Below the pieces are notes generated by a model, which had not been told where the DNA came from, ran no database searches, and saw only the letters and a list, made by a program, of their open reading frames with translations. From a virus, in IMG/VR virus record IMGVR_UViG_3300014208_000003, positions 1 through 64,000 of that record: a stretch of DNA of 64,000 nt; one strand, 5' to 3'. Each line of letters begins with the position of its first letter. Position 1 is the stretch's first letter. Of this stretch, positions 1 through 64,000 are shown one piece after another. The translations under genes were made by a program, and so were the position numbers.

Positions 1-36
1 ACCGCACGTGCTCCGTGAAGATAGGGTTTATCCGCC

Positions 37-735
37 ATGCTTAAACTACACCATTTACAGTTTAATACACTGACACGCTCTGGAGATTATCACTATACCG
101 GCTCGCAAGATGCATCTGCAAGCACGACAGATTTTGTTTTGGCAGACGGTGTGCTTTACGAAGTAGAGATAACGGTTTTAGGAACTATACAGCGTACCGG
201 TTGTCAGCATTATGCATCTACGGCCTACAGTGGTAATACGGACGGCTTTGATACAAACACATCTCAACAGTCTCTTGGTACCGTAAAGGCCTATGTCCGT
301 AGAAGCGGCGCCACTCTCTACGCTGGTTTACATCCTGATTTTGTTACTCTAAGTGCAGTATCATCTAATGTTTACACACAAGTAACACAACGCAATATAG
401 AGGTTTCCGCCGGTGTGTTTAAAAACCTAGACTGGACTGGAGTTGCGGCAATTGCAGCCGGAGCCTCTCCGTTGGGGAGTGCGATAACGTTTTCGCTTGA
501 TGGTAGCAATCAGCTTGTGATCGATATGAACGACACATTTGCAGACACTGGCAGTATCGCGATAGGCACGGCGGACGGCTATCAGTTTGTATTAGAGGGT
601 GGCGCTGGTGGCGGCTCACTACAATTTAATCATACAGATGGTTATTCAGCGGCGCCAGATGCGGCTTATGCCATAAGCACGTGTCAACTAAGTTGTAATT
701 GGAACTTTGGACTAAGAGTTGCAATTATAGAATAA
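37..735 (+). CDS. GC-richer beta-strand/Gly-rich protein, possible virion appendage or fibre domain
   Basis: 232 aa rich in T/S/G. DNA is clearly more GC-rich than the rest of the window. Confidence 0.4.
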   Translation: MLKLHHLQFNTLTRSGDYHYTGSQDASASTTDFVLADGVLYEVEITVLGTIQRTGCQHYASTAYSGNTDGFDTNTSQQSLGTVKAYVRRSGATLYAGLHPDFVTLSAVSSNVYTQVTQRNIEVSAGVFKNLDWTGVAAIAAGASPLGSAITFSLDGSNQLVIDMNDTFADTGSIAIGTADGYQFVLEGGAGGGSLQFNHTDGYSAAPDAAYAISTCQLSCNWNFGLRVAIIE

Positions 736-743
736 TAATTAAA

Positions 744-1127
744 ATGATAAATAAAATTGACTCCATTATAGCATATATAGTCTTAAAAAAGCTTATAACG
801 CCTATTACACAATCAAAAGCATATAAATTAAAGTTAATAAATGCTTCCGGAAGAGTTACAAAAGAACCGACGACAAGAGAAGAGAAAGAAGCGTTAACAT
901 TATTAGATAAAATTGTTTTTAAATTGAAGAGATTACTAGGATCAAAACTTCAGGAATTAAATCCGTTTTTGTATCTGTATAATTCTCCTGATATGTACAA
1001 TAAGTTAATTGTAAACGGTGATATTAAAAACCGTGCTGAAATAAAGAGAATAGAAAAGGATATAAAATCATTACAAGAGAATTATCATATTTCAAAAGAA
1101 GATATCCTTGCGATTCTAGTAGACTAA
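744..1127 (+). CDS. conserved T4-like phage hypothetical protein
   Basis: Motifs LKKLITPITQSKAYKLKLINASG and LTLLDKIVFKLKRLL, typical of T4-like head-region genes. ATG744 preferred over TTG699. Confidence 0.55.
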   Translation: MINKIDSIIAYIVLKKLITPITQSKAYKLKLINASGRVTKEPTTREEKEALTLLDKIVFKLKRLLGSKLQELNPFLYLYNSPDMYNKLIVNGDIKNRAEIKRIEKDIKSLQENYHISKEDILAILVD

Positions 1128-1145
1128 ATATAAAAGAGGAACATT

Positions 1146-1529
1146 ATGTCAAAAACAATTTTAAAATACAGGAAAATACCAACAGAACACGACGTAATGT
1201 TTTTCAACGGAACTAACGGAAAAGATATCGAAAAATGGTCTAAAGGAAAAGTAATAGATAAAGAAGATCATTTAGAAATAGAAACATTAGAAGGTACAAT
1301 GAATGGTTCTAAAGGTGATTGGATTATAAAAGGATTAAACAAAGAATTCTGGGCTATAAAACCAGATATTTTCGAAAAGAGTTATGAAGAAGTAAAGGAT
1401 GAAATAGAAGAAGATTTTACAACAACCGCACCAACATCCCAAGCTACCGGACAATTTGCTTTTCATATGGGAATACAGCGAAGAAACCAAATTGCGGATA
1501 AAGTTCAAAAAATTTTAAGGAATAAATAA
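1146..1529 (+). CDS. PGDYG-like phage protein
   Basis: TLEG-x-GDWIIKGxxxEFWAIKPDIFEKSY motif. RBS GAGGA upstream. Confidence 0.6.
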   Translation: MSKTILKYRKIPTEHDVMFFNGTNGKDIEKWSKGKVIDKEDHLEIETLEGTMNGSKGDWIIKGLNKEFWAIKPDIFEKSYEEVKDEIEEDFTTTAPTSQATGQFAFHMGIQRRNQIADKVQKILRNK

Positions 1530-3337
1530 TGGCAAATTTTCTCGCTAATCTTTATAATCAATATATTAGACAGAGAGTATCCGATGTTTTTGAAGATAAT
1601 AAACCTCCAATTGTTCCGGACACTTCTACAGGATTAACTCAGGAACAGATTGATCAATATTATTCCAATCCGTCTGAAATAAATAATACTTATGTAAATT
1701 TTAATACGATATTCGAAGGCAAGAGACAGAGAATTGCTTTTTATAGAGATATGTCCAACTTTCCGGAAATATCAGATTCACTAGATTATATATGTGATGA
1801 ATCTGTTGTTCAAAATATGGAAGGTGATTTTTTAGAAATAGAGTTTGATTCATCTGTTCCGAAAAATGTTCAGAAAAGAATTCGTAGACAGTTTGATTAT
1901 CTATGTTCCGAAATATTCCAGAATGAAGATAAGTTATGGGAGATGTATAGGAAATGGTTAGTTGACGGAGAAATGTACTTAGAAATTGTTTTAACACCTA
2001 CTGGAAAATCTATACAAGCAATTAAACTGTTACCTTCCTATACGATGGTTCCGAAATATGATGGTGATAAAATAGTTGGTTATGAACAGTATATTGCTAA
2101 TTCGGATGCTCTTAAAAGTGGTTCCGGATATGTACATTCATCAATTGCGGAACCAGATAGAAAATTCGATTCAAATCAAATTCTATATGTAAATTATGGA
2201 AAGTATGGTAAAAACAATCTTGATATACTTGGTTACTTAGATTCTTCAATTAGACCTTATAACCAATTGAAGAACATGGAAGATTCTTTGGTAGTGTATC
2301 GTTTAACAAGAGCTACCGAAAGAAGGGTTTTTAATATAGCTGTCGGAAAAATGCAAAAAGGAAAAGCCGAACAGTATATACAAAATCTAATTAACAAACA
2401 TAAAAATAAAACTGGTTATGATTCTGCTACAGGTGCATTACAAACATCAAGAAATATAATGGCACTCACTGAAGATTTCTGGTTCGCTAAAGATGAAACC
2501 GGAAAAGGAACAGAAGTAAGTAATTTAGCTGGTGGAATGAATATCGGGGAAATTTCTGATGTTGAATACTTTTTAAAGAAACTATACAAGACATTAAAAT
2601 TACCTCCTTCACGTTGGCAGAATACTCCTCAATATACTTCTACTACTGAAATTGGAAGAGACGAAATTAAATTCGCTAACTTCGTAAAAAGACTACAGAC
2701 AAAATTTAAGAAGATATTTACCGAATCTCTTTTATTCCAAATGCGGATCCAAGATTTTGAGAAGCGTTGGATAGATCCCGATTTGTTTAATATTAGAATG
2801 ATTCCAGCAACATATCTCCAAAAAGATAAAGAACTGGATATGAGAAAAAAACAATTAGAATCAATACAAACAGTTGCCGAATATATCATTTCAGAAGGTA
2901 ACGATAAAGGAATGTTCGCTTTTGAATTTGCTATGAAAAAATTTGTAGGACTTACCGATGATGATTTCGCTCTTAATGATAAAATGATAGAAATACAACA
3001 ATTAAAAGCAAAAATAGAAAAAGATAATGTAGAAAAAATTAAAGGAACAGAATCTCCGGAAGAAAATGTTGGCGATAATCCGGAAGAAGTTACTGATATA
3101 AATCCTGAAACCGGAAAACCTATTGCTAAAAAAGATTCCGAAAAAGCTCCTGAAGAAACTCCGGAAGAACCAGTTAAAGAAGAATCTGTTAAATATCCAA
3201 CTAAGAAAAAATCCATAAAAGATAAACTTTCTAATCTTGATAGGTATAAGAAAAATTTCAAAATACTTAATAGCGTGGATGCCTATATGACAGATTCCGA
3301 TAATTCTAATCTAAATACTATTGGAGAAATTTTATGA
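1529..3337 (+). CDS. gp20: portal protein (T4 gp20-like) with acidic C-terminal extension
   Basis: NQLKNMEDSLVVYRLTRATERRVFNI, KAEQY, EDFWF and RDEIKF motifs. Confidence 0.95.
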   Translation: MANFLANLYNQYIRQRVSDVFEDNKPPIVPDTSTGLTQEQIDQYYSNPSEINNTYVNFNTIFEGKRQRIAFYRDMSNFPEISDSLDYICDESVVQNMEGDFLEIEFDSSVPKNVQKRIRRQFDYLCSEIFQNEDKLWEMYRKWLVDGEMYLEIVLTPTGKSIQAIKLLPSYTMVPKYDGDKIVGYEQYIANSDALKSGSGYVHSSIAEPDRKFDSNQILYVNYGKYGKNNLDILGYLDSSIRPYNQLKNMEDSLVVYRLTRATERRVFNIAVGKMQKGKAEQYIQNLINKHKNKTGYDSATGALQTSRNIMALTEDFWFAKDETGKGTEVSNLAGGMNIGEISDVEYFLKKLYKTLKLPPSRWQNTPQYTSTTEIGRDEIKFANFVKRLQTKFKKIFTESLLFQMRIQDFEKRWIDPDLFNIRMIPATYLQKDKELDMRKKQLESIQTVAEYIISEGNDKGMFAFEFAMKKFVGLTDDDFALNDKMIEIQQLKAKIEKDNVEKIKGTESPEENVGDNPEEVTDINPETGKPIAKKDSEKAPEETPEEPVKEESVKYPTKKKSIKDKLSNLDRYKKNFKILNSVDAYMTDSDNSNLNTIGEIL

Positions 3338-3477
3338 ACCTGATCGAAACATTGAAAACAGAAAATTATAGCGAACTCAAAGAATATGTTAATGAAGAGG
3401 TTGCTAAAAAAATAGCTCATAGAATCAATTCCAAAAAAGAAGAGATACTGAATAAACTAAGAGGAAATATAAAATGA
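3334..3477 (+). CDS. small prohead core protein (gp67-like position), 47 aa
   Basis: ORF MNLIETLKTENYSELKEYVNEEVAKKIAHRINSKKEE..., read by hand. Follows CTAAATA and a GGAG RBS; overlaps both neighbours. Confidence 0.55.
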   Translation: MNLIETLKTENYSELKEYVNEEVAKKIAHRINSKKEEILNKLRGNIK

Positions 3478-3836
3478 ACTTAATAAACGATACACGAAGA
3501 ATTTTAGGTGAATCCGTTATTGAAGAAAAATCTGAAATATCCGGAACAACTATTTATAAAACTTCTGTTGATGATATGAGCAATGGTTTTGAACAGTTAT
3601 CAAAAGATGTTGGTGATAGAGATATAGAGTTAACAGTATCCGGAGAAAAAATAGATCAAACAGCGAATTTCATTAAAGGCACATTCTCTGTATCGTTTAA
3701 TGTTGACGAATTAATATTTGTATCAGGTAATGTAAAACTCTCAGTAGATACATCAATAGTAGAAGAATTATCAATAAGCAAAAGATCGTTCACAATCTTC
3801 TTGAATAATGATTTAGAAATTTCCGGAACATTTTAA
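3474..3836 (+). CDS. putative prohead core/internal head protein
   Basis: Lies between portal and protease. N-terminus shared with 4504..4845. Confidence 0.5.
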   Translation: MNLINDTRRILGESVIEEKSEISGTTIYKTSVDDMSNGFEQLSKDVGDRDIELTVSGEKIDQTANFIKGTFSVSFNVDELIFVSGNVKLSVDTSIVEELSISKRSFTIFLNNDLEISGTF

Positions 3837-3845
3837 GGATATACA

Positions 3846-5731: not shown

Positions 5732-6943
5732 ATGGATCTTATTCAAAAATGGAGTAATCCGAAACTTGGCAAACTTTCCATTGCCAACATCGAAAATGAA
5801 ATCACCAGAAAAGTAATGGCTGATCTCTTGGAAAATCAGGAAACAAAAAATATTAATCAGGAACTTCTGTTGGAAGCTGATTTTAATACAACTACACCAA
5901 CAACACAAGCTAATGGACAGTTTCAACCTATTGCTCTTGCAATGGTACGTAGAACTTTTCCCGAATTGTTTGCTACAAAAGTAGTTCCTACACAGGCTAT
6001 GAAAGGCCCAGTTGGACTTGCTTATGCACTACGTTTCGTGTATGAAGGTTACGAAAATTCAGAAGCTGCTTTTAACCGAGTAAATGTGTTCTCTGGATTC
6101 ACAGGTTCTACTTCTGGTACTTCTGGTACAGCAGATGCAGGAACGGGTGTTGCTCTAAACACAGCAGAAGCTTGGTACATGGGAAATCCTACTGTAACAG
6201 GTAACATGCCTCAGCTAAAACTTATCCTCGCAAAAGCCGCAATTGAAGCTAAGACACGTAAACTAGCTGCTTCTTTCTCGCTTGAAGCTGCTCAGGATAT
6301 TAGAGCTATGCATGGTCTCGATATCGAAAAAGAAATGGTTGACGTACTTCATTATGAAGTTCTTGCCGAAATGGACAGAGAAATCGTAGCTGCTCTAAAG
6401 GCTGCTGCTGTTGATACTTCTGTCGGTGGAGAAGCTGCTACTGCTCTAGATGTTTCTGCTTCTGATGGTAGATGGTCTCAGGAAAAGTTTTCTAATGTTG
6501 CTAATGCAATAATCAAGAAAGCAAACGACATCGCGACATCAACATTCAAAGCTGCTGGTAACTTCGCAATAGTTTCTAACTCTGTAGCAACTGCACTTCA
6601 AGCTTTAAACAGCAAGATTTTCACAGCTATTGATTCTAACGTAAACGCAACCGGAACTATGGCAAAAGTTGGAAGACTTAATGGCGCTATTGATATCTAT
6701 CGTGACCCATACGCAACTTCCGATTATGCTCTTATCGGTTACAAAGGCCCTGGACAAAATGACGGTGGAATTGTTTACAGTCCTTACATAATGGGACTTA
6801 CCGCAAAAGCAACGTCAGACCAGTCATTTTCACCAAAAATTTGCGTAATGTCAAGATATGCGATTACTGCTTCCCTGTTAAATTCTGGGAGATATTATCG
6901 TCAAATCAATTTTTCTAATCTGTCATCTGTAATTGGTGCTTAA
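5732..6943 (+). CDS. gp23: major capsid protein (T4 gp23-like)
   Basis: LLENQE, MVRRTFP, QAMKGPVGLAYALR, AKTRKL, EAAQDIRAMHGLD and YSPY motifs. Confidence 0.97.
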   Translation: MDLIQKWSNPKLGKLSIANIENEITRKVMADLLENQETKNINQELLLEADFNTTTPTTQANGQFQPIALAMVRRTFPELFATKVVPTQAMKGPVGLAYALRFVYEGYENSEAAFNRVNVFSGFTGSTSGTSGTADAGTGVALNTAEAWYMGNPTVTGNMPQLKLILAKAAIEAKTRKLAASFSLEAAQDIRAMHGLDIEKEMVDVLHYEVLAEMDREIVAALKAAAVDTSVGGEAATALDVSASDGRWSQEKFSNVANAIIKKANDIATSTFKAAGNFAIVSNSVATALQALNSKIFTAIDSNVNATGTMAKVGRLNGAIDIYRDPYATSDYALIGYKGPGQNDGGIVYSPYIMGLTAKATSDQSFSPKICVMSRYAITASLLNSGRYYRQINFSNLSSVIGA

Positions 6944-9356: not shown

Positions 9357-10062
9357 CATAACAGATTTTAAAAATTATCTGAAATCAATGCTTGGAAGTC
9401 CCGTCATTACCGTAGAACTTTCCGAAGCACAATACGAAAACATTATTTATGATACTATACAAGACTTTCAAAGATACAACTATAACGAAGGATCATATAA
9501 AGACTACATTGTTATCGATCTCAGTGCCGGACAAATGTATTACGATCTCTCCGGAACAAATGTAGAAGGTATTATTGATCTTTATCTTAGTGTTGGTAGT
9601 CAAGGTAATATTAACGTTTTGTTTAGTCCTGTTAATATGCTTCTTGGTGGAAATGCTGGTGTAATGAATTTAATGCAATACGGAATGGCTGATTATTATT
9701 CCGCAATGATGTACTTAAGAGAAATTACAAATACATTTTCCGTAAAATATAACTTGAACTATAATCCAACACAAGAACGATTAACGGTTACTCCGACACC
9801 AGAAGAAGCAATGCGCGGAATGTTGGAAGTATATAAAAGAGAAACTTCGGAAAATCTCTATAACCATACACTTGTTAAAAAATTGGCTTTGGCTAGATGT
9901 AAAGTATTGTGGGGAAGAAATATCGGAAAATTTGCTATAACCCTTCCCGGCGGTGGTACTATGAATGGATCCGAAATACGGTCGGAAGGTGAAGCGGAAG
10001 AAGAAAAACTCATGAACGATATTTCAAATGAATCAGAACCTATCGATTTTTTTTGCGGTTGA
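9340..10062 (+). CDS. gp13: neck protein (T4 gp13-like)
   Basis: LGSPVITVEL, WGRNIGKF, LPGGGTMNG and C-terminal PIDFFCG. Confidence 0.9.
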   Translation: MARITNITDFKNYLKSMLGSPVITVELSEAQYENIIYDTIQDFQRYNYNEGSYKDYIVIDLSAGQMYYDLSGTNVEGIIDLYLSVGSQGNINVLFSPVNMLLGGNAGVMNLMQYGMADYYSAMMYLREITNTFSVKYNLNYNPTQERLTVTPTPEEAMRGMLEVYKRETSENLYNHTLVKKLALARCKVLWGRNIGKFAITLPGGGTMNGSEIRSEGEAEEEKLMNDISNESEPIDFFCG

Positions 10063-10076
10063 CGAAAGGAATATAA

Positions 10077-10133
10077 ATGACCCACCACAACCTTACCGGC
10101 TGGGCAATGCCACAACTACAGGACGGCGAATAA
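10077..10133 (+). pseudogene. 18-codon truncated paralog of the next gene's N-terminus
   Basis: MTHHNLTGWAMPQLQDGE* after an AGGA RBS, resembling MATYRNLLYWLLPPDFEFQDGD. Its TAA overlaps the next ATG. Confidence 0.45.
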
Positions 10134-10621
10134 TGGCAACATATCGCAATCTGTTATACTGGCTCCTTCCACCTGATTTTGAATTTCAGGACGGCGACGT
10201 TGTTTATGGTGGTAATCTCTACAACCAAGGACTAGTTGACAAGGGTAAAAGAGTGCGCTTCATTGGAGTAAATCTTAAAGGTTGCACCACGACGTTACAG
10301 CAACTGCCTGAAGATAGGAACGCAATGGGAGAAACAACTCCAGAGCCAGAACAACAGCCCATATATCCAGAGTTAGCAGCAAACGCCGAAATTATTCTAA
10401 ACGCTCTTAAAGGCTCTGGCAGGCTGACCGAGGAACAGATTTTAGGTGTAGAATACTTTGCTAGTAATGTAAAGCAGATAGCTGGAACAGATTCGGAAAT
10501 TGGCGAGGTGGCGACTCAAAAAACTTTAGAAATAGTTACTACTCTTAGAAATTTGGGCTATAACGAATTCGCCACTCAGATAGAACAGGCTATGCTTCAA
10601 ATACAACAGGGGTGGAACTAA
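10133..10621 (+). CDS. hypothetical protein in GC-richer insert (possible fibre chaperone/accessory)
   Basis: TAATG-coupled ATG at 10133. Composition differs from flanks. Confidence 0.5.
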   Translation: MATYRNLLYWLLPPDFEFQDGDVVYGGNLYNQGLVDKGKRVRFIGVNLKGCTTTLQQLPEDRNAMGETTPEPEQQPIYPELAANAEIILNALKGSGRLTEEQILGVEYFASNVKQIAGTDSEIGEVATQKTLEIVTTLRNLGYNEFATQIEQAMLQIQQGWN

Positions 10622-11649
10622 TGGCGTTTATACACGTAAAAAACACTGGCAATGATACCACAGGAGACGGCTCGTTCGCCGCTCCTTATCTGACTTTAGA
10701 CAAATGCATGACTGTACATACTCAGCGAGATACGATTGCACTACTGTCAGATATAATGTTAGCTACAAAAGTCAACATGCCTGTTTATGCAGCGTACCTA
10801 ATAAACTCGATTATAGGAGTTAACGATGCTGGTGTAGAAGACGGGACTAGACGCAGAATATACGGTAATGGCTCTTGTGACTACGCCTTTCATTTCACAG
10901 CAAATAGTTATACATGGTCATGGCGAAACCTAGATTTTGATACGTTTACTGAATACGTTATAAGCAATAATTTTACATATTCGTACAGATCTGGAATGAC
11001 TAATTTCAGTATATCAAACTGTAAAGGACTGACTAACGGATTAACTTTTGGGTTTGGTAGTGGTGGTTTTTTTGAAGATTTTGAAGTCTACAATTGCAGC
11101 AGTGGCGTTCATTGTTTTTCTCTACAACTAGGCACGATTAAAAATGGCTCCTTTAGAAACTGCTCAGCTATACAATACATAATAACAGGAGCAAACGGAT
11201 CAGTAGCTCTTAATAACGTAATCATTACGGGATGCTCAGTTACACAAGCAAATTTTCGTATCATCGGTGCCGTGAACCAGTGTAGTAACGTAATAATTGA
11301 TAGATGTATTGTTCCGACATCTGCAACGAGTTATTTAATTCAGATAGGCGGAGAAGTTAGAGGCTTGTTGATAACTAACTGTACTGTCCCTACGGGCAAC
11401 TACTTAATTACGTATACGACAGTTGTGTCCACTATAGCAAACGTTGCTGTTTACAATACCACATCAGCATTAGCAATTCTTGGTAAAGTTTCTGGTGATG
11501 CTCTTACTAAAAACATTATTCAGCTAACGGAAACACCTTATCAGAATGATGACGGTATTGACTACACATTAAAACCAAGTTTTGCATGGCGTAGGAAGAG
11601 ATTTGAATTGGGCAAGTTTACAAATGTATTAACCCCGACAGGACTATAA
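10621..11649 (+). CDS. parallel beta-helix (pectin-lyase-like) protein
   Basis: N-terminal GNDTTGDGSFAAPYLTL motif and repeated N-C/I-x-N-C rungs. Confidence 0.6.
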   Translation: MAFIHVKNTGNDTTGDGSFAAPYLTLDKCMTVHTQRDTIALLSDIMLATKVNMPVYAAYLINSIIGVNDAGVEDGTRRRIYGNGSCDYAFHFTANSYTWSWRNLDFDTFTEYVISNNFTYSYRSGMTNFSISNCKGLTNGLTFGFGSGGFFEDFEVYNCSSGVHCFSLQLGTIKNGSFRNCSAIQYIITGANGSVALNNVIITGCSVTQANFRIIGAVNQCSNVIIDRCIVPTSATSYLIQIGGEVRGLLITNCTVPTGNYLITYTTVVSTIANVAVYNTTSALAILGKVSGDALTKNIIQLTETPYQNDDGIDYTLKPSFAWRRKRFELGKFTNVLTPTGL

Positions 11650-18399: not shown

Positions 18400-19464
18400 A
18401 TGAAACATCAAATTAAGAACGCGATCATAGTTACTAATAAAGTTTTAGTTCCTATTTATTTGTATTCTACTTTAGATAATTTATTTAATAAAAGTAAAAT
18501 TGCTATTAAAGCTATGTTACAAGATAGAACTAAAACAAGTTCAAAATATTATAAATATATTCCTTGTGCATTATCAAAAGGTCTTATAAATAAATACCAA
18601 AAAAATAAAAAATGTAAGGCTGTTAAAAATATTGTTTTATCTATGTGTGGTGATGGAGGTAGAATAGTAAAATTAGAAGGTGAATTTATTAGAATTAATT
18701 GTTTTTTCAAAAAAGAAAAAATAAAAATTTTTCCAACAAAACCAATAACTGGATTTATAAGACAAGTTGAATTTTTCAAAAGAAAACAGAAATGGTATAT
18801 ATCTTATTGTTATTATACTAAAACAGATACAATTGTCTGTAATGGATTTGTGGGTGTTGATAGAAACCAAAGAGGAAATGTAGCAACCATAGCTGATCCA
18901 TCAACAGGGAAAGTAGCTAGACTTGGCCCAGATATTAAACTTTGGAAAGATAACCTAAAGTTAAGAAAAGCCAAGCTACAAAGGAAAGGAAAATTTGGGC
19001 TATTAAAGAAACTGAAAAGAAAACAATCAAACAGAACCAAAGAAATTAACCATAAAGTGTCAAAACAGATAGTTGACTACGCCAAAAAACATTGTAGAGC
19101 TATTGTGTTGGAAAAGCTGAATATTAAAGGTAGCAAAATAGAACACAGCACCCAAAAGGCAAGCTGGTCTTATTTCCAACTCGAACAGTACATAACGTAC
19201 AAAGCTTCCTTGCAAGGCGTACCAGTAATTTATATCAGACCGGAATATACCTCTCAGGAATGTAGTAAATGTGGAAGCATCAACAAGACCAATACAAAAC
19301 ACTATAAATGTAGTAACTGTGGACACGAAGATCATAGAGATGCTAACGCTGCTTTTAATATCGCTATTAGAGCAAAGAAAGCCTATGGACTTACCGGAAC
19401 AGAAAGATTCTCTCCGGCGGGGTGCATTGATGCTCCCCTAACTAGTAAAGGGAGGGTTTGCTAA
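18400..19464 (+). CDS. tnpB: IS200/IS605-family TnpB RNA-guided nuclease, no adjacent TnpA
   Basis: RuvC-I VGVDRN, RuvC-II IVLEKL, zinc ribbon TSQECSKCG...CSNCG, RuvC-III HRDANAAFNI. Confidence 0.92.
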   Translation: MKHQIKNAIIVTNKVLVPIYLYSTLDNLFNKSKIAIKAMLQDRTKTSSKYYKYIPCALSKGLINKYQKNKKCKAVKNIVLSMCGDGGRIVKLEGEFIRINCFFKKEKIKIFPTKPITGFIRQVEFFKRKQKWYISYCYYTKTDTIVCNGFVGVDRNQRGNVATIADPSTGKVARLGPDIKLWKDNLKLRKAKLQRKGKFGLLKKLKRKQSNRTKEINHKVSKQIVDYAKKHCRAIVLEKLNIKGSKIEHSTQKASWSYFQLEQYITYKASLQGVPVIYIRPEYTSQECSKCGSINKTNTKHYKCSNCGHEDHRDANAAFNIAIRAKKAYGLTGTERFSPAGCIDAPLTSKGRVC

Positions 19465-41695: not shown

Positions 41696-41705
41696 GGAGT
41701 TTTTA

Positions 41706-42362: not shown

Positions 42363-42371
42363 GGAAACACA

Positions 42372-42983: not shown

Positions 42984-42985
42984 TT

Positions 42986-44565: not shown

Positions 44566-44566
44566 C

Positions 44567-46492: not shown

Positions 46493-46494
46493 TA

Positions 46495-47082: not shown

Positions 47083-47086
47083 TTTC

Positions 47087-47192
47087 TATAGATCCTAAAT
47101 AATTGTGTAGATAGGGACAGGAATTGCAATTCTTTCTTAGTAGCCTTGAATACTGAGATTACCTTCTACACAACTTTATTCAAGGATCTATA
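47087..47192 (+). ncRNA. structured leader RNA occluding the endonuclease RBS
   Basis: Nested stems 47087-96/47183-92 and 47103-11/47165-73 enclosing two hairpins. Loop GCCTTGAA is complementary to TTCAAGG at the RBS. Confidence 0.7.
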
Positions 47193-48014
47193 ATGGAAAA
47201 TCGAGAAAATTTAGAACAGAACGAATTTTATGTTTATGTATACCTTGACCCTAGAAAACCCGGATTATATAAATATATGAATACAGAAATATCCGGAACA
47301 TATAATTCAGAAACAATTCCGGAATTTTGCTTTGAATATTTGCCGTTTTATATCGGTAAGGGCCACGGAGATAGATTAAGATCACACTTACATCAAAATA
47401 AAACCAGTGTAAGAAAAGAAAATATTTTCAAATCTAATAAAATAAAATCAATAATGGAAGAAACTAATTCTGAACCTATTATAATAAAATATAAAGAAGG
47501 ATTGTCGGAAGTTGAAGCATATGATTTGGAAACTACTATGATTTTATCTATAGGAAGGAAATATACAAATCCAAGCGGCCCGTTAACAAATATAGCGGAT
47601 GGTGGTGCTAATCCTCCTAAGTGGAATAAAGGTAAAACGGGTGTGTATTCTCCGGAACTTATCAAACAAATTTCGGATAAACTTAAAGGTCGTAAATTTT
47701 CGGAGGAAACATTACAGAGGATGAACGAAGCAGCAAAAAGAAGACAAGAAAAATATACACACGAAGATTATAAAAGATGGAATTTAAAAAAATTAAAAAA
47801 ATATAAATTTGAAAAAGATGGAAAAATAATAATAATTGAAAATTTAAAACAATATTGTAAAGATAATAATTTATCACATACTGTTATGGTGAAAATATTT
47901 AATCGTGGTGTTTATAGAATTTCTAAAACTATAAACGGAATTATTGAAATACACGAATGCGAATCGTATAAAGGTTACATACAAATTAAAAATGAGGAAC
48001 AATATGACAGTTAA
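47193..48014 (+). CDS. GIY-YIG-like (Seg-like) homing endonuclease with NUMOD3-like repeats
   Basis: FYVYVY...FYIGKG...R, LE, GPLTN and PKWNKGKTG. Confidence 0.8.
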   Translation: MENRENLEQNEFYVYVYLDPRKPGLYKYMNTEISGTYNSETIPEFCFEYLPFYIGKGHGDRLRSHLHQNKTSVRKENIFKSNKIKSIMEETNSEPIIIKYKEGLSEVEAYDLETTMILSIGRKYTNPSGPLTNIADGGANPPKWNKGKTGVYSPELIKQISDKLKGRKFSEETLQRMNEAAKRRQEKYTHEDYKRWNLKKLKKYKFEKDGKIIIIENLKQYCKDNNLSHTVMVKIFNRGVYRISKTINGIIEIHECESYKGYIQIKNEEQYDS

Positions 48015-49008
48015 AACAAAAACAGCACTCGTAACCGGAGCGGGTGGATTTATCGGGAGTAACACGGTTAAAAGACTTAAGAAAATGGGATATTGGGTAC
48101 GAGGAGTTGATTTAAAATATCCAGAATTCGAACAAACAGAGGCAGATGATTTTATTATAATGGATTTACGAGATGATAAAAATGTTATAAGAGCATTGAC
48201 GCTTGATAATCTTAACGAGAAGTTTGAATTGACTTTCTGCTATGCCGCAGATATGGGCGGGGCGAAATATATTTTTTCTGGGGAACACGATGCTGATGTT
48301 ATGGAAAATTCTGCTCAGATAAATCTTAACTTTGCGAGACACCATGATAAAATAAATAAAATGTTGTGGAGTAGTTCGGCTTGTATATATCCTCTCGTTA
48401 ACCAAATGGATCCCAATAATCCAAGCTGTGCTGAAGATACTTGGGATAAGGGCGCTTGCGATTCCCCGTATGGTCACGAGAAGGTTTTTAGCGAACAGTT
48501 GTATCAATCATACAGAAGAAATTACGGTCTTAATGTAAAGATAGTTAGATTCCATAATGTATTCGGAACAAACGGTACTTATGAACCACTGAAATCCAAA
48601 GCACCAGCAGCGACTTGCGTAAAGGTAATAGAAGCTCCGGAAAATGGTGAGATAGAAGTGTGGGGAACTGGGGAACAAACTCGTTCATTCATAAATATTT
48701 CCGATGCGCTCGATGGTGTTTTTAAATTGTTAGACTCAGAAGATTTTCACGGCCCTGTCAATATAGGTTCCGAAGAGATGATTTCGATAAATGATTTAAC
48801 AAAGATGGTGATAGATATTTCCGGAAGAACCGATTTGACTATTAAGAATGTAGAATCAAATTGTATTGGTGTTAACGGAAGAAATTCAGAAAATACCCTT
48901 TGTAGAGAAAAACTAAAATGGGAACCTAAAATGTCTTTAAGAGAAGGTATGGAAAAATTATATGCTTGGATCTACAAAGAAATTAAAGGTGTAGAGTTTA
49001 AAAAGTAA
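48004..49008 (+). CDS. GDP-mannose 3,5-epimerase-like NAD-dependent epimerase
   Basis: TGAGGFIG, AADMGG, SSACIYP, YGHEK, KAPAA and WGTGEQTRSF. Confidence 0.88.
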   Translation: MTVKTKTALVTGAGGFIGSNTVKRLKKMGYWVRGVDLKYPEFEQTEADDFIIMDLRDDKNVIRALTLDNLNEKFELTFCYAADMGGAKYIFSGEHDADVMENSAQINLNFARHHDKINKMLWSSSACIYPLVNQMDPNNPSCAEDTWDKGACDSPYGHEKVFSEQLYQSYRRNYGLNVKIVRFHNVFGTNGTYEPLKSKAPAATCVKVIEAPENGEIEVWGTGEQTRSFINISDALDGVFKLLDSEDFHGPVNIGSEEMISINDLTKMVIDISGRTDLTIKNVESNCIGVNGRNSENTLCREKLKWEPKMSLREGMEKLYAWIYKEIKGVEFKK

Positions 49009-49650: not shown

Positions 49651-49724
49651 GCTCCTGTAGCACAATTGGCAGATGCAGAAAACTTAAAATTTTCAAAGTA
49701 GTGGTTCGAATCCACTCAGGAGCA
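49651..49724 (+). tRNA. tRNA-Leu (TAA) with short variable loop
   Basis: Acceptor GCTCCTG/CAGGAGC, A73, GAAAA-CTTAAAA-TTTTC anticodon arm, AGTGG-TTCGAAT-CCACT. Confidence 0.88.
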
Positions 49725-57746: not shown

Positions 57747-58529
57747 ATGATAAAAGAATCAATTTTCGATCCTATTCAAAAAGAACTTTCAAAAGATGTC
57801 TGGAATAATAACCAACTAATTCCTGCTATCAAAACCCAAATCATAAACACTTTCTCAAACTTCCTGAATAAACACAATCTAAAACAAGTTATCAAATCAA
57901 TGAATGTTCTAGGATCAATAACAGGATATCAATACACACCAACTTCCGATATTGATGTGAATGTTGTCCTAGACCTTCCGGAAGAATCCCTGAAAGAACT
58001 ATATAAAGACTTGCCAAATAACATCTTAGCAACAAATACCAAACATCCTATCAACTATTATATTTCAACTATCTGGAAACCCGAATGGTCAAAAGAATCT
58101 AATGGCGTTTATAATATTCTAAAAAATGATTGGCAAAAACTTCCTGAACAACCAAAAACAAACCCAGACAATAATCTTAAACTAGTTTCAGAAATATCCA
58201 GATTCTTCACAACAGGTCTAGATTCAACAATATCCGAATTTTTCCGAGATCTAGACTTCTATCAAACAACTAATAACACAGAATATAAAAAACAAAAATT
58301 CCAAGAACTAAAAGAAGACTATATCTCAATCCAACTAGCACAACACATCCTCCACCAATTCAGAGGAGAAGCATTTCAAAATAATCCATTCCCAATAACT
58401 ATCAATATAACTTCTGCAAATGAATCTATTAACAACATGATTTATAAGTACATAGAGAAATTAGGATACCAAGACACTATCAACAGAATCTCCGGAATAG
58501 CAAAAGAACTCAATCTATCTGCCTCTTAA
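57747..58529 (+). CDS. Pol-beta-superfamily nucleotidyltransferase
   Basis: LGSITGYQYTPTSDIDVNV and HPINYY. Confidence 0.75.
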   Translation: MIKESIFDPIQKELSKDVWNNNQLIPAIKTQIINTFSNFLNKHNLKQVIKSMNVLGSITGYQYTPTSDIDVNVVLDLPEESLKELYKDLPNNILATNTKHPINYYISTIWKPEWSKESNGVYNILKNDWQKLPEQPKTNPDNNLKLVSEISRFFTTGLDSTISEFFRDLDFYQTTNNTEYKKQKFQELKEDYISIQLAQHILHQFRGEAFQNNPFPITINITSANESINNMIYKYIEKLGYQDTINRISGIAKELNLSAS

Positions 58530-58794
58530 ACCTTGCTAAATCAATTTCAAAAAATGGATTAGAAATATATTCCTGAACACTTTTTAAAATATCTTCCGGA
58601 ACATTCTCTATATATGTCCTATTTCGTTCATAACTATCCGCCAATAATGAATCACACTCTATAGTACAACTTTTAGCACTCATTAAATAACCCACATAAA
58701 TATACTCGATCACCACGGACTTTTCTGAATGTATTCTTTTCTCTATCACAAACTCAAAAATAAAATCCCAATTTAAAATATCAATTATTTTCAT
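58510..58794 (-). CDS. VPE/PFFEID paralog
   Basis: NVPEDILKSVQEYISNPFFEIDLAR. Confidence 0.8.
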   Translation of the reverse strand: MKIIDILNWDFIFEFVIEKRIHSEKSVVIEYIYVGYLMSAKSCTIECDSLLADSYERNRTYIENVPEDILKSVQEYISNPFFEIDLARFKRQID

Positions 58795-59069
58795 TTTGAC
58801 TGACTATATCTTTCCAAATCAATATCGAAAAATGGTGACTTAATATATTCTAAAAGCTTCTCCGGAACAGAAGACAGATTAATCTCATAAAAAGTCTGAT
58901 CCGCATAAAAATACCTTTCGCCATTATCATAACTAAATTTTATCTCATCTTCATAATTCCAATACTCTACATCAATCTTTTCCGAATAAGTGTACCAAAT
59001 ACAATAAGCACTTCTGCCATTTTCATAATTAGAATAAAATTTTCCCAATTCGCGTGTATTACTTTCCAT
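58791..59069 (-). CDS. VPE/PFFEID paralog
   Basis: VPEKLLEYIKSPFFDIDLER. Confidence 0.8.
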   Translation of the reverse strand: MESNTRELGKFYSNYENGRSAYCIWYTYSEKIDVEYWNYEDEIKFSYDNGERYFYADQTFYEINLSSVPEKLLEYIKSPFFDIDLERYSQSK

Positions 59070-59310
59070 ACTTCCTCGCAATATCTATCTCTAAGAAAGG
59101 TGACTCAACATATTTTCTAAGAACCTCCGGAACATCATCAACAGGAACTTCTTGAACAATATTGCCATTATAACAATGAGCTATATAAAAACCGTTAATA
59201 CTTATTAAATCCATTCCTCGCAACTCTATATCCAAACTATGATCATACGTATACCAGTAAACATTTATATCGTTCTTGTAATATCTCCCAATCTTTCGGT
59301 TCAAATCCAT
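59059..59310 (-). CDS. VPE/PFFEID paralog
   Basis: VPEVLRKYVESPFLEIDIAR. Confidence 0.8.
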   Translation of the reverse strand: MDLNRKIGRYYKNDINVYWYTYDHSLDIELRGMDLISINGFYIAHCYNGNIVQEVPVDDVPEVLRKYVESPFLEIDIARKYGK

Positions 59311-59597
59311 TATATTTCATTCTTTCTTAGCCACCGATCTTTCCAACCTATCTTCTGCTTATATCTTTCAAAATCTATCTCAAAGAAAGGATCATCAAGC
59401 TTCTTTTGAAACATTTTTCGAATCTCTTCCGGAACATCATCAATATCTACAGTCTTCTCAACAATAATAGTTTCTAACGATTCTGACAATACTCTAAATT
59501 CTAAACTATGACTAAGGAATATATAATTATAATTCTCTATCATATCTTCCTCTAAAACACATTCCCAACAATTGCCCCACTTTAAAAATCTCACCAT
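59310..59597 (-). CDS. VPE/PFFEID paralog
   Basis: VPEEIRKMFQKKLDDPFFEIDFER. Confidence 0.8.
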   Translation of the reverse strand: MVRFLKWGNCWECVLEEDMIENYNYIFLSHSLEFRVLSESLETIIVEKTVDIDDVPEEIRKMFQKKLDDPFFEIDFERYKQKIGWKDRWLRKNEI

Positions 59598-59615
59598 AAT
59601 TATTCTCCCAACACG

Positions 59616-59903
59616 TCAATACATTCCGATCTTTAATCTCTCCAATTCAATATCTAAAAATGGATCTAACAACTTATCAGAAAACACTTTAACAACATCT
59701 TCCTGAACAACATCAACCAAACATCTTTCTAACACCAATGACCTACAATTACACCTATCAAGAGTAACATCATTCAGATTATCTTTAAAACATCCCATAC
59801 TAATATAATCAACACGATCTTCAATACAAGACATCCATAATACTTTCTCATATATATTTTCCCACCTCAACACATCTCCAACTTTAATCATATGTTCTAT
59901 CAA
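59616..59903 (-). CDS. VPE/PFFEID paralog
   Basis: VQEDVVKVFSDKLLDPFLDIELER. Confidence 0.8.
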   Translation of the reverse strand: MIEHMIKVGDVLRWENIYEKVLWMSCIEDRVDYISMGCFKDNLNDVTLDRCNCRSLVLERCLVDVVQEDVVKVFSDKLLDPFLDIELERLKIGMY

Positions 59904-60141
59904 TCTCCCTTTTCAAATCAATCTCCAAAAAAGGATCAGAAAAGATATTCCTGAAATCTTCCGGAACTTCTGACTCATCAACCCGTACACAACATTTTTC
60001 AAATCCCTCATCTATTAAAAAGAATCCATACCTTCCAACATAATGAAAACATATATAGAATCCCGAAATCCCAACCCATAAATGTATATGAATATCCTTT
60101 AACCACCTGTAATATAAATCATCCTTCTTATACCAATTCAT
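59884..60141 (-). CDS. VPE/PFFEID paralog
   Basis: VPEDFRNIFSDPFLEIDLKR. ATG60141 overlaps the upstream gene end. Confidence 0.8.
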   Translation of the reverse strand: MNWYKKDDLYYRWLKDIHIHLWVGISGFYICFHYVGRYGFFLIDEGFEKCCVRVDESEVPEDFRNIFSDPFLEIDLKREIDRTYD

Positions 60142-60508
60142 TTCCCACCCACAAACTAGCACCCTCACATTCCAACCTATTCCCAACAGTATCAAATAAA
60201 ATCACACGACTATCGCAAACACCTATAGCACAATGCCAAACACTTCCAAAAGCATCATTACTAAAACACTCATCAACTATAACCTTCTTATCTCTAAAAC
60301 CATCCTCAAATCCAATATATTCAAAACTGCTTATAACATCCCTAACTCCATACTTATCCCTAATATAATCCCTCTCAACATCATTCCTAACAACCATTAA
60401 ATATCCCAACCCACTCTTCAATAACTCAATAATAGAACTTGTCTTACCAATATTACAAGGAGCTATCACCAAACCACCTTTTATAATCTCTTCCGTTATC
60501 CCATTCAT
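60128..60508 (-). CDS. minimal P-loop protein inside the paralog array
   Basis: Walker A-like APCNIGKT and Walker B-like VIVDE. Lacks the family tag. Confidence 0.55.
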   Translation of the reverse strand: MNGITEEIIKGGLVIAPCNIGKTSSIIELLKSGLGYLMVVRNDVERDYIRDKYGVRDVISSFEYIGFEDGFRDKKVIVDECFSNDAFGSVWHCAIGVCDSRVILFDTVGNRLECEGASLWVGNELV

Positions 60509-60759
60509 CCTAACCTCCTTTTAATATCTATCTCTAAGAAAGGTGATCTAAGATATTCCAAAAGCTCTTCCGGAACATCTTCAATATCCACACCCTCAAA
60601 ATAATCTGAAGGCTCCGGACAATTCCCCCTTCGATGATATATGTTAATTCTACCACCCTTCCAAAACTCTATATCAATATCTTCCGAATAGACTAACCAA
60701 ATACATTCCCAAACTGATAATAAATTGCTCCGGTAATATTTCCCAACTTCCCTCTTCAT
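60505..60759 (-). CDS. VPE/PFFEID paralog
   Basis: VPEELLEYLRSPFLEIDIKR. Confidence 0.8.
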   Translation of the reverse strand: MKREVGKYYRSNLLSVWECIWLVYSEDIDIEFWKGGRINIYHRRGNCPEPSDYFEGVDIEDVPEELLEYLRSPFLEIDIKRRLG

Positions 60760-61001
60760 TTATTCAAACACCTTCCTAAATCTATCTCAAAAAACGGTGA
60801 TTGCATATATTCCCAAACACGCTTCCAAATATCTTCCGGAATCTCTTTTGATTGAATCGACCAACCAAACGATGATAATTTATATATCCTCATCAAATCT
60901 TCTCTTTTTTCAACAATCAACACGTATTCCTCAAAATAAATATCATACCTATCATCATAAATTATTACACCTATAGCATTAACCAGCTTCTTATAATTCA
61001 T
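60756..61001 (-). CDS. VPE/PFFEID paralog
   Basis: IPEDIWKRVWEYMQSPFFEIDLGR. Confidence 0.8.
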   Translation of the reverse strand: MNYKKLVNAIGVIIYDDRYDIYFEEYVLIVEKREDLMRIYKLSSFGWSIQSKEIPEDIWKRVWEYMQSPFFEIDLGRCLNK

Positions 61002-61300
61002 GACAACTTCCTTTTCATTCTCTCCAACTCTATCTCAAAAAATGGATTAGACATATATTTCTGGAATGCTTTAACAACTTCTTCCGGAATAACAATAATT
61101 CTACGACTTTCTAATGTATTCAAAAACCGCATACCCATATCATCTAAACCATATAATTCAACAGACTTATCTTCGTAATGTCTTAAAACAATATAAGAAA
61201 CACATCTCCTACCATTATATTCCGCAACATCAGAAAGCCAAATCAACTTCTCTATACAAAATCCCCACTGTATCATATCTCCAACTTTAACTTTATGCAT
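60998..61300 (-). CDS. VPE/PFFEID paralog
   Basis: IPEEVVKAFQKYMSNPFFEIELER. Confidence 0.8.
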   Translation of the reverse strand: MHKVKVGDMIQWGFCIEKLIWLSDVAEYNGRRCVSYIVLRHYEDKSVELYGLDDMGMRFLNTLESRRIIVIPEEVVKAFQKYMSNPFFEIELERMKRKLS

Positions 61301-61578
61301 TACTTATCATCCCATCCTATCTTCCGCTTAAACCTCTCCAATTCAATATCAAAGAAAGGATCCAATAACCTATTCCGAACATTATTCAAAATAGATTCCG
61401 GAACAAAACTTATATTAATTAACTTCGTATCATAATGTTCACAAGCTATAATACTACTGTTTAAATCCATATCCCGATCCAAATAAATATATTCACTTTC
61501 TTCTACCCTAATTTCTCTTATTAACACAAACTCATAAAATACTCTACCCCATGACAATATCCCAATTATCCTTTCCAT
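61300..61578 (-). CDS. VPE/PFFEID paralog
   Basis: VPESILNNVRNRLLDPFFDIELER. Confidence 0.8.
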   Translation of the reverse strand: MERIIGILSWGRVFYEFVLIREIRVEESEYIYLDRDMDLNSSIIACEHYDTKLINISFVPESILNNVRNRLLDPFFDIELERFKRKIGWDDK

Positions 61579-61823
61579 CCCTGCCTATACCTTTCTACAT
61601 CAATATCCAAAAATGGCGACTCAACATATTCCCGAAGAACTACAGGAACATCATCACCAAATATCTCCTGAACAACAACATCATAATACGACGTAACATT
61701 ACCAAACACACAATTTATAATTATCTTATCAACACATTCCCACTTCTCTATATCTACATTCTTATCATACACATACCAATCACACACATTACCCCTATAA
61801 TACTTCCCGATCTCCCTTTTCAT
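61566..61823 (-). CDS. VPE/PFFEID paralog, first gene of the operon
   Basis: VPVVLREYVESPFLDIDVER. Confidence 0.8.
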   Translation of the reverse strand: MKREIGKYYRGNVCDWYVYDKNVDIEKWECVDKIIINCVFGNVTSYYDVVVQEIFGDDVPVVLREYVESPFLDIDVERYRQGWKG

Positions 61824-61830
61824 AAATCAT

Positions 61831-61859
61831 AATATAAAACAACAATATAATATCTACAA
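61831..61859 (-). promoter_or_regulatory. sigma70-type promoter of the paralog operon
   Basis: TTGTAG-N17-TATATT, then 7 nt to the ATG at 61823, with no SD. Confidence 0.6.
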
Positions 61860-62022
61860 GCAAAATCGGCAAATATATAAAGAAATATTATCCGGAAGAA
61901 CTCATCGCTAATCATTATGTCCAAATCTTAACACATCGTTCACTTATTAACACTTTGTTCATTTCCCTTCTATAACTGTATTGTACACTTATTTACAGTT
62001 ATTTACACTTTCTTACAAAATA

Positions 62023-62099
62023 ATTCCGGAATACTTCAAGAATATCTCCGGAACATTATCTTGAACATTCCGGAATACTTCTAGAATATCTCCTGAACA
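62023..62099. repeat. two 33-bp direct repeats (44-bp period) in a non-coding divergent region
   Basis: ATTCCGGAATACTTC(A/T)AGAATATCTCC(G/T)GAACA at 62023 and 62067. Confidence 0.8.
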
Positions 62100-62205
62100 A
62101 CAAAATTATATAAAGCAGATCCACATATTTCTTTCCGATCAAATCAAGTATAATCATTCAGGAAATATTTTTAATAATGTTCCGGAATAATTTCTAAATA
62201 CTTTC

Positions 62206-62694
62206 ATGAACAATATAAAATTAAATTCTACAACCTATATGCATCCGGAATTATTCAAGAAGTATTCCAAATTACTTATCCAATCAAATCGTTTAGGAAT
62301 TTACTTTATAGTCACACAGGTAGCAAGAACTCCTGAATATCAAAAGGCATTATATTATCAGGGTAGACTTCCGGCTGATACTGTTAATGAGATGAGGTTA
62401 AAAGTAAATCTTGCACCTATTACTTTGAAACAGAATCGAATAGTAACATCAACATTAAAGTCAAAACATTTATTCAAAACATTTCCGGAATATGGTTCAA
62501 AACAATTTTCGGAAGCATTTGATGTTGCGATTATAAAACCAAATTCTAAAATAATTCTTTGGGATAAACCTGATATCAACAATAATAACAAGAATGATTA
62601 TGAGGAGCTTGGAGTTATAGGAGAGTCATTAGGATTATATTGGGGTGGCCGTTTTAAAAATATTGATATGCCACATTATGAAATTAGATTGTAG
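62206..62694 (+). CDS. M15-family (L-Ala-D-Glu-like) peptidase endolysin
   Basis: RT..YQ..LY.QGR, SKH, AFDVA and WGGRFKNIDMPHYE. Confidence 0.88.
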   Translation: MNNIKLNSTTYMHPELFKKYSKLLIQSNRLGIYFIVTQVARTPEYQKALYYQGRLPADTVNEMRLKVNLAPITLKQNRIVTSTLKSKHLFKTFPEYGSKQFSEAFDVAIIKPNSKIILWDKPDINNNNKNDYEELGVIGESLGLYWGGRFKNIDMPHYEIRL

Positions 62695-62980
62695 TCTTCT
62701 TAGGAATAAATAATTTTTCAATGTTAGCGATATATCTTTCAACATCAATATCAAAAAACGGATCATCAAGTTTCTTCCGGAAGATGTTTTGAATATCTTC
62801 TGGTGGACGGTTCGTTGTGCTTCTACCTTCTATATATGTTAACGAATGCCAGACTAGTTCCGGTTCAATCTTTTCCCAAGCCAATGTCAATAATATTACT
62901 AGTGATGAATGATTTATATTACTTGGTACGGTTTTAATAACAATATAAGATTCACGGGCAGATCTATATATTTTAAGCAT
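62684..62980 (-). CDS. VPE/PFFEID paralog
   Basis: PPEDIQNIFRKKLDDPFFDIDVER. Confidence 0.8.
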   Translation of the reverse strand: MLKIYRSARESYIVIKTVPSNINHSSLVILLTLAWEKIEPELVWHSLTYIEGRSTTNRPPEDIQNIFRKKLDDPFFDIDVERYIANIEKLFIPKKTTI

Positions 62981-62984
62981 TCTT

Positions 62985-63236
62985 TTAAAACCTTTGTCTA
63001 ATATATCTTTCTAATTCTATTTCCGAAAAAGGATCTTGAATCTTTTTCCGAACCATCTCTTGAACATTCTCCGGAACATCTTTAACATCAACATCAATAT
63101 CTAAACATCTTAACGAATCCTTATACCACCAATCTAATCGAAATTGTTTATATTGAATCAGGTATCCGAAACAAACATCTTTATAATAATCGCCAACCTT
63201 ATAAAAATAATCATTCCAATAAACATTAAACCACAT
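62985..63236 (-). CDS. VPE/PFFEID paralog
   Basis: VPENVQEMVRKKIQDPFSEIELER. Confidence 0.8.
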   Translation of the reverse strand: MWFNVYWNDYFYKVGDYYKDVCFGYLIQYKQFRLDWWYKDSLRCLDIDVDVKDVPENVQEMVRKKIQDPFSEIELERYIRQRF

Positions 63237-63513
63237 TCTTTAACCACCTTATATATTCAATCTCTGTAAAAGGATCATCAAACTTATTCCGGAATGCTTT
63301 TACAATATCTTCCGGAACATCTGCTTCTGAAATTGGTTTGTAATGTTTATCTATATCACGAATAAAACAAATACCTTCATCAAATATCGAATTATATAAA
63401 CAAATTCTTCCGGAAGATGCCACGTAAAAATCTACTGGTAATAAAATATCATCCGACCAATTTTCATGGTAAATCTGCATACTGGAATATAATAGATAGA
63501 AGGTCTGGAACAA
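63226..63513 (-). CDS. VPE/PFFEID paralog (start uncertain)
   Basis: VPEDIVKAFRNKFDDPFTEIEYIR. Confidence 0.7.
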   Translation of the reverse strand: MFQTFYLLYSSMQIYHENWSDDILLPVDFYVASSGRICLYNSIFDEGICFIRDIDKHYKPISEADVPEDIVKAFRNKFDDPFTEIEYIRWLKNVV

Positions 63514-63578
63514 AAGGAATTATTGCGCGTACTTTCATGTTATCTAAATACTATTGAACATTAATAACAGGAGGTAGT

Positions 63579-64000
63579 ATGAGAGAAATTGAATTGAGTA
63601 ATGGTATGGTAACTAAAGTAGACGATGAAGATTTTATTTATCTATCACAGTTTAACTTCCATTTTAAGAAACAAACCGATCCAAGATACAAATATGGTTA
63701 TGCTTATAGAGTGATTTGGAATAAGGAAACTAAAACTAAAAAAGCATTGGATATACACAGAGAAATTATGAATGCTAAAAAAGGAGAATGTGTTGATCAT
63801 ATTAATCATGACACATTAGATAACAGAAAAGAAAATTTAAGAATATGTACTCATCAACAAAATATGTGCAATAAAGCTAAACTATCAAACACAAGTAATT
63901 TATATAAAGGTGTTTCAATAATGAGTAGAAATAAATTAAGACCCTATGTTGCAATGTGTGGCGGAGATTTTGTTGGTTGCTTTAAAACAGAATTAGAAGC
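63579..64000 (+). CDS. HNH (probably HNH-AP2) homing endonuclease, runs off the window
   Basis: Hand translation: VDDEDF...IHREIM...VDHINHDTLDNRKENLR...YKGVS. GGAGG RBS. Confidence 0.85.
   Translation, partial: MREIELSNGMVTKVDDEDFIYLSQFNFHFKKQTDPRYKYGYAYRVIWNKETKTKKALDIHREIMNAKKGECVDHINHDTLDNRKENLRICTHQQNMCNKAKLSNTSNLYKGVSIMSRNKLRPYVAMCGGDFVGCFKTELE

Follow-up and report, generated by a model that had tools for sequence, protein, structure and literature searches.

Cyanobacteria have been known for about 30 years to carry highly iterated palindromes (HIPs), on whose function there is no agreement. Phages usually purge short palindromes. HIP1 (GCGATCGC) and the alternate HIPs of cyanobacteria are palindromic octamers that are 15-300-fold over-represented (Elhai 2015, PMC4390886; Xu et al. 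2018, PMC5861425). The first 64 kb of the virus record IMGVR_UViG_3300014208_000003 (the stretch analysed here, referred to as the window) carries a signal of this kind in a phage. The palindrome TCCGGA, often extended to the octamer TTCCGGAA, is dispersed along it in large excess. In the literature searched there was no description of TTCCGGAA or TCCGGA hyper-abundance, or of any HIP, in a phage.

The source genome is a virus record of 158,262 bp that has direct terminal repeats and a GC content of 31.7%. The window contains the T4-like genes for the portal, the major capsid protein, the large terminase and the tail sheath, while gp32, a primase and RNase H are encoded outside of it in the same genome. 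The carrier is an uncultured, lytic T4-like phage lineage. No deposited phage has a capsid protein more than 35% identical to that of this phage, and a nucleotide search of the GenBank phage collection returned no match for the phage. Genes were called simply as the longest open reading frames (ORFs).

The signal in the window can be listed as a single feature.
1..64000, no strand: field of 122 dispersed TCCGGA, 61 of them as the full octamer TTCCGGAA (exact counts).
Base composition predicts 4.8 TCCGGA and a first-order Markov model predicts 7.5, and only about one octamer would be expected. The first-pass annotation, which was made from the letters of the window, had counted about 120 sites by hand against about 4 expected, and the exact count agrees with it. 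The whole genome has 301 TCCGGA where 19.7 are expected (15-fold), roughly one per 500 bases or about 2 per kb, and 160 TTCCGGAA where 2.9 are expected (55-fold). In the window TCCGGA has the highest z-score among all 4096 6-mers, and it is the sole enriched palindromic 6-mer, with an observed/expected ratio of 16 against 1.95 for the runner-up. The remaining palindromic 6-mers with at least four G/C are depleted about 3-fold (79 observed vs 256 expected), which is classic restriction avoidance. More than 20 of these other GC-rich palindromes are missing from the window altogether. The sites are flanked by T at position -1 and A at +1 (about 75% each) and are unrelated further out; therefore, the motif is not part of a longer repeat element. 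Tandem repeats account for only about 3-7 of the TCCGGA sites, the word being present in a single 22-bp array and in a few short repeats. A dispersed element of the repetitive extragenic palindrome (REP) or miniature inverted-repeat (MITE) type, or a tandem repeat, was ruled out as the source given the unrelated flanks and the few tandem copies.

The enrichment is a signal at the DNA level that is independent of reading frame and is not driven by protein sequence. The sites in the window fall in the phases TCC-GGA (Ser-Gly, 42), NNT-CCG-GAN (x-Pro-Glu/Asp, 56) and NTC-CGG-ANN (11), and 13 are non-coding. When synonymous codons are shuffled within each gene, 27.5±4.5 in-gene sites result (maximum 43) compared to 110 observed, and permuting the codons of the genes leaves 12.6±3.5. 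Genome-wide, the motif is written at 89 of 237 Ser-Gly places (12.6 expected), at 153 of 293 x-Pro-Glu/Asp places (37.8 expected) and at 34 of 253 [FLIV]-Arg-x places (2.1 expected). The 10.8 kb of non-coding DNA in the genome hold a further 26 sites. The motif has even altered protein composition, in that the permissive dipeptides are themselves above amino-acid expectation, Pro-Glu 2.2-fold and Ser-Gly 1.5-fold genome-wide. The first-pass annotation had described a HIP-like signal that occurs in several frames and in non-coding DNA and is not protein-driven, and had proposed a codon-preserving shuffle as a check. The sites do occupy all three phases and the spacers, the enrichment persists in that shuffle, and this part of the annotation is upheld.

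That protein sequence, codon usage, or a family of repeats or paralogues produced the excess as an artefact is hardly credible. A handful of sites do lie inside tandem repeats, and one family of small paralogous proteins spells a conserved Val-Pro-Glu with the motif.
58510..63513, minus strand: small paralogous genes with a C-terminal Val/Ile-Pro-Glu usually written GTTCCGGAA (12 of 15 detected members).
The members were detected by a strict pattern, and 12 of the 15 have TCCGGA at the Val-Pro-Glu codon triplet. The family encodes proteins of 80-110 aa with variable N-termini and a shared C-terminal module, [VI]PE...DPF[FL][ED]I, and runs on to about 70 kb of the genome. The peak at the right end of the window that the first-pass annotation had reported is present, with 22 sites in 58.5-64 kb (4.0 per kb) vs 1.7 per kb elsewhere, and is explained in part by this family and by non-coding arrays. 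Outside of the paralogue block there are still 100 sites where about 7 are expected, an excess of about 14-fold. The synonymous shuffles, the enrichment in each of the three frames as well as in non-coding DNA, and the unrelated flanks also speak against such an artefact.

The motif is certainly conserved within a narrow phage lineage. A syntenic Logan contig, found via the closest homologue of the phage methylase P0001 (69% identity), has 87 TCCGGA in 27.2 kb (3.2 per kb) and is richer in the word than the phage itself. The conservation tests rest on this one relative and its 27 kb. Its DNA identity to the phage is about 72% (67-76% in nucleotide alignments) and its amino-acid identity is about 61%. 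The nucleotide alignments keep 14 of 19 phage sites compared to 20% of background 6-mers, and codon alignments of 24 orthologue pairs keep 22 of 34 sites (65%). At positions with the same amino acid in both genomes, 81% of motif codons are identical vs 60% of other codons. The codon CCG is retained in 16 of 17 cases (94%) inside the motif and in 10 of 24 (42%) outside, and TCC in 7 of 8 (88%) inside and 2 of 19 (11%) outside. The same comparison of codons inside and outside of the motif was used by Xu et al. 2018 to argue that HIP1 is under selection (PMC5861425). Among 24 IMG/VR loci of capsid relatives (38-63% identity) the TCCGGA excess is small or nil; therefore, the trait is limited to a narrow lineage.

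The T4-like relative G010 has 51 CTGCAG where 8.6 are expected, but this word was rejected as a comparable palindrome: 16 of the copies come from 15-bp pentapeptide-type repeats, and the remainder is only about 4-fold enriched. G010 is a 170-kb genome with 27.7% GC, and each of its 15-bp ...ANLQG... repeats holds a CTGCAG (G010:C1; L262 214-559 and L264 55,557-55,632). Four phage records from a scan for clustered octamers (G006-G009) were also set aside, the enrichment in them being only local or moderate and the records themselves being unrelated to this phage.

The spacing of the sites follows a rule that is newly found here, as are the non-coding arrays described below. There are no pairs of sites less than 22 bp apart in the genome, where about 11 are expected, and there are 16 pairs at 22-26 bp vs 3.3 expected (a 5-fold excess). 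Of 2000 permutations with local site density kept, none reached either value. The syntenic relative likewise has no pairs below 22 bp (3.5-4 expected, P ~0.02) and has 3 at 22-26 bp (1.1 expected). The paired sites occupy different reading frames or non-coding DNA. Non-coding sites cluster in a few regions, and the following features illustrate the pairs and arrays in the window.
47292..47323, no strand: non-coding pair of sites 26 bp apart, an example of the preferred 22-26 bp spacing.
61833..62205, no strand: non-coding region between oppositely oriented small-gene blocks, with 5 TCCGGA.
62025..62097, no strand: 22-bp tandem iteron-like repeat of 3.3 copies, every unit opening with TCCGGAA.
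The region 61833..62205 contains the 22-bp array plus an adjoining 10/20-bp repeat, and the array is the top-scoring tandem repeat of the whole genome. Just past the window, a 620-bp non-coding stretch (genome 64,296-64,912) has 10 exact and about 7 near-cognate copies of the motif, and could be an origin or a control hub. In scans for sigma-70-like promoters, matches in the array regions were no more frequent than in shuffles.

The most likely mechanism, although the assignment is tentative, is selection for a site recognised by a symmetric protein that binds or processes DNA and has a putative footprint of about 22 bp. The octamer TTCCGGAA with its core TCCGGA would have been written into genes by synonymous and amino-acid changes, and also into spacers, and selection would keep the word at about 2 copies per kb. 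A sequence-specific protein with two-fold symmetry, which binds or processes DNA, would then act on the phage DNA in the infected cell, with each occupied site covering about 22 bp. Occupancy of this size would leave no sites closer together, would favour neighbours at 22-26 bp and would give rise to iteron-like arrays in two non-coding control regions. The putative protein may be one of the host, in which case the palindrome would be present in the host genome too. This explanation would account for the palindrome, the spacing exclusion, the adjacency of sites, the arrays, the tolerance of variants and the conservation. The absence of sites from recent arrivals (tnpB and the GC-rich ORFs) and the abundance of the octamer in unrelated bacteria also count in its favour. 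A more specific version, in which a dimeric protein covering about 22 bp lands on TTCCGGAA throughout the genome and the arrays in the two hubs serve for nucleation, is possible but doubtful. Such a protein could be, for example, a chromosome-organising, a self-marking, or a replication or early-transcription factor.

The pairs and arrays also bear on a signal at the RNA level, in which each transcript of either strand has UUCCGGAA and the word serves as a nuclease or binding site, or forms a hairpin with a neighbouring copy. The word is indeed identical in the transcripts of both strands, and copies 22-26 nt apart can form a stem of 6-8 bp, with one pair flagged as terminator-like. However, the densest arrays are in long non-coding regions between gene blocks, hairpins would not exclude spacings of 10-21 nt, and most pairs are without a subsequent T-run. 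An RNA-level role is very improbable.

Near-matches to the motif are common as well. The first-pass annotation had noted frequent one-off variants, and TTCCGAA (31 copies) and TTCGGAA (34 copies) are examples in the window. None of the 24 single-base variants of the octamer falls below expectation, and most exceed it 2-27-fold. The outer positions are the most tolerant, CTCCGGAA and TTCCGGAG each being enriched about 26-fold. Variants with a C-to-T change are enriched rather than depleted, with TTTCGGAA at 36 vs 6 expected (6-fold) and TTCTGGAA at 25 vs 5.4 (4.6-fold). A degenerate binding site would be expected to have such enriched one-off variants.

The phage has three orphan DNA methyltransferase genes at genome 110.8-114.8 kb (L030:6808-10757), interleaved with a primase and a RuvC-like resolvase.
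P0001: methylase, PF01555, with an SPPY motif typical of N4-cytosine enzymes.
P0002: methylase, PF01555, with a DLPY motif.
P0003: methylase, PF05869, with an NPPY motif.
A ribonucleotide reductase gene near this cluster bears a LAGLIDADG domain. The P0001 family is found on many phage and plasmid contigs and is strongly conserved over its whole length, including the presumed target-recognition region; homologues in viral contigs are distant only.

A methylation-linked origin of the signal would have P0001 or a host methyltransferase mark TCCGGA, with methyl-dependent repair favouring the accumulation of sites, either through the strand choice of mismatch repair or through a process like very-short-patch repair. 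The presence of three orphan methyltransferases in the phage replication module speaks for it, and the TCCGGA-rich relative retains the P0001 orthologue (69% identity) together with the Dam-like gene. The other GC-rich palindromes are avoided (79 vs 256) but TCCGGA is not, and is probably protected or never attacked. HIPs have also been connected to cognate methylases (Elhai 2015, PMC4390886).

The genome and its relatives speak against this origin. The first-pass annotation had raised methylation-linked repair and pointed to a methylase or Vsr-like gene as its possible source, but the phage genome has neither a C5 methylase (PF00145) nor Vsr (PF03852). N4-methylcytosine deaminates to uracil and not to thymine, so no T:G repair drive is expected from an enzyme of that type. 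An excess driven by Vsr or very-short-patch repair was rejected since both families are absent and the T-for-C words are enriched. Contigs with P0001 homologues, and hence the SPPY family, need not be enriched: L291 has no TCCGGA where 3.3 are expected and L293 has 7 vs 7.6. The enriched relative lacks P0002, and the non-enriched G010 has it. The five TTCCGGAA-rich bacterial genomes introduced below have no close P0001 homologue and no PF05869. As far as these genomes can be compared, none of the three methylases appears to be tied to the motif, and to carry the methylase is not sufficient. A methylation-linked origin would also leave the 22-bp spacing rule unexplained. The methylation-linked repair proposed by the first-pass annotation is not supported, and a methylation-linked origin as a whole is improbable, although one of the three enzymes or a host enzyme may methylate the site; the binding site that the annotation had listed beside it is the best fit among its mechanisms, given the 22-bp minimum, the 22-26 bp excess, the arrays and the conservation.

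The same word is found in bacteria. A scan for three clustered octamers identified five genomes (G001-G005; loci L069, L049, L100, L113 and L058). Three Ruminococcus metagenome-assembled genomes (MAGs) have 1027-1481 copies of TTCCGGAA, a Lachnospiraceae MAG has 572 and a Bacteroidota MAG has 3692, all dispersed, and a reversed-word control gives 0-108 in these genomes. In samples of 145-200 kb from G001 and G004, TCCGGA occurs at 2.0 per kb, which matches the phage, despite a GC content of about 46-52%. In a sample of 60 family members around the Bacteroidota MAG, that MAG alone is enriched (1 of 61). No gene or spacer link between the phage and the TTCCGGAA-rich bacterial genomes was found.

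These genomes raise the possibility of a passive host signature. A host process such as biased repair or gene conversion would write the word, which would have no function in the phage. This assumes that the host chromosome bears the same iterated palindrome and that DNA replicating there for long acquires the word. The presence of 570-3700 TTCCGGAA per genome in several bacterial lineages (0-108 in the control) fits this explanation, as does a TCCGGA density in G001 and G004 close to the roughly 2 per kb of the phage. It is also consistent with the lack of sites in recently acquired phage genes such as tnpB and the GC-rich ORFs. However, the phage GC content of 32% is far below the 40-55% of the enriched bacteria. 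G001 and G004 show neither the spacing rule nor the non-coding arrays of the phage. The near-cognate variants are not depleted, contrary to an efficient conversion drive, and a lytic phage passes few generations per cell, so that a mutational drive would need to be strong. A passive imprint is rather unlikely on this evidence. By weight, it nevertheless stands first among the rivals, ahead of the methylation-linked origin, the RNA-level signal and the coding artefact.

The blocks without sites were correctly placed by the first-pass annotation. There is no TCCGGA in the capsid gene, in tnpB, or in the GC-richer ORFs 37-735 and 10028-11649.
5732..6943, plus strand: major capsid gene, no sites despite 5 permissive Ser-Gly or x-Pro-Glu places, GC 40%.
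18400..19464, plus strand: TnpB (IS200/IS605-type) insertion, no sites, within a 3.5-kb site-free gap.
Some other long genes are likewise without TCCGGA. The TnpB gene, which has a Cas12f1-like TNB domain, is inserted with the tail tube gene on one side and the downstream virion genes on the other. The homologues nearest to it, which reach at most 60% identity, are on other contigs of 150-300 kb, and a host search via these homologues gave no organism names.

Several points weigh against the binding-site explanation. No candidate binding protein was found. The neighbours of the methylases were considered as a nuclease or reader of the site, and proved instead to be a RuvC-like resolvase and a gp4-like head-completion protein. 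Persistent conversion, and not selection for binding, could also be the source of the conservation above background, and ordinary transcription-factor sites are not normally so enriched within genes. In G001 and G004 close pairs (9-21 bp) are common and there is no 22-bp exclusion; the word may have another use in these bacteria, or the host may just not be among them. The hints as to the host also conflict. A Shine-Dalgarno sequence is upstream of at least 57% of the phage genes (control 11%), which argues against a Bacteroidota host, but the nearest tetranucleotide signature among the bacteria sampled is that of the Bacteroidota MAG.

Apart from the motif, the window has a glycan-type island (37325-49008) with a two-domain glycosyltransferase and two NAD-dependent sugar epimerase/dehydratases. 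It is bordered by a tRNA-Asn (37229-37301) and a tRNA-Leu (49651-49724).

The phage runs counter to the rule that phages purge palindromes, yet it purges its other palindromes. A genome of 158 kb is a much smaller setting for a strong signal of the HIP kind, and the signal is conserved in a diverged relative and absent from more distant ones. The 22-bp minimum spacing and the iteron-like arrays are more in keeping with a bound protein than with a mutational quirk. If the word is a landing site, no iterated palindrome before it would have had a physical rule that can be read, and it would open a way to learn what HIPs do in general. Should the host bear this word as well, uncultured phages could be paired with their hosts by means of the motif.

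Chi, the DNA uptake sequences (DUS/USS) and the CCWGG words that Vsr drives to excess in E. coli are words maintained by a sequence-specific cellular machine. The phage word is like them in being a short genic word at a frequency of about 1 per kb. It differs from Chi and DUS/USS, which are asymmetric and orientation-biased, in being a palindrome, and from CCWGG in that the phage has no Vsr and no C5 methylase and its T-variants are enriched. Iteron and operator arrays are similar to the non-coding arrays of the phage, where a 22-bp direct repeat of 3.3 copies and irregular arrays at 22-26 bp share a palindromic core. Iterons are confined to origins, whereas about 275 further copies in the phage are spread through coding DNA and no initiator or repressor was identified. 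The TTCCGGAA-rich bacteria have the same octamer, dispersed at about 2 TCCGGA per kb (G001, G004), but they are cellular, have 40-55% GC and commonly have close pairs at 9-21 bp.

HIP1 differs from the phage motif in its sequence and in its carrier. The phage word is TTCCGGAA and resides in a lytic T4-like phage with 32% GC, not in a cyanobacterial chromosome with GCGATCGC or a GC-rich alternate; the count of GCGATCGC in the window is zero. No cognate methylase can be assigned in the phage. The 22-bp minimum, the 22-26 bp preference and the iteron-like arrays were not found described for HIP1 in PMC4390886 or PMC5861425. In its other properties the phage motif resembles HIP1. Over-representation of at least 15-fold genome-wide is seen for the octamer (55-fold) and for TCCGGA (15-fold). 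The motif is a palindromic octamer with about one copy per 0.5-1 kb, it occurs in all frames and in non-coding DNA beyond what codon usage accounts for, and its one-off variants are enriched too. As with HIP1, whose function is likewise unexplained, it is more conserved between related genomes than control words, and codons are better kept inside the motif than outside, in this case in one 27-kb relative.

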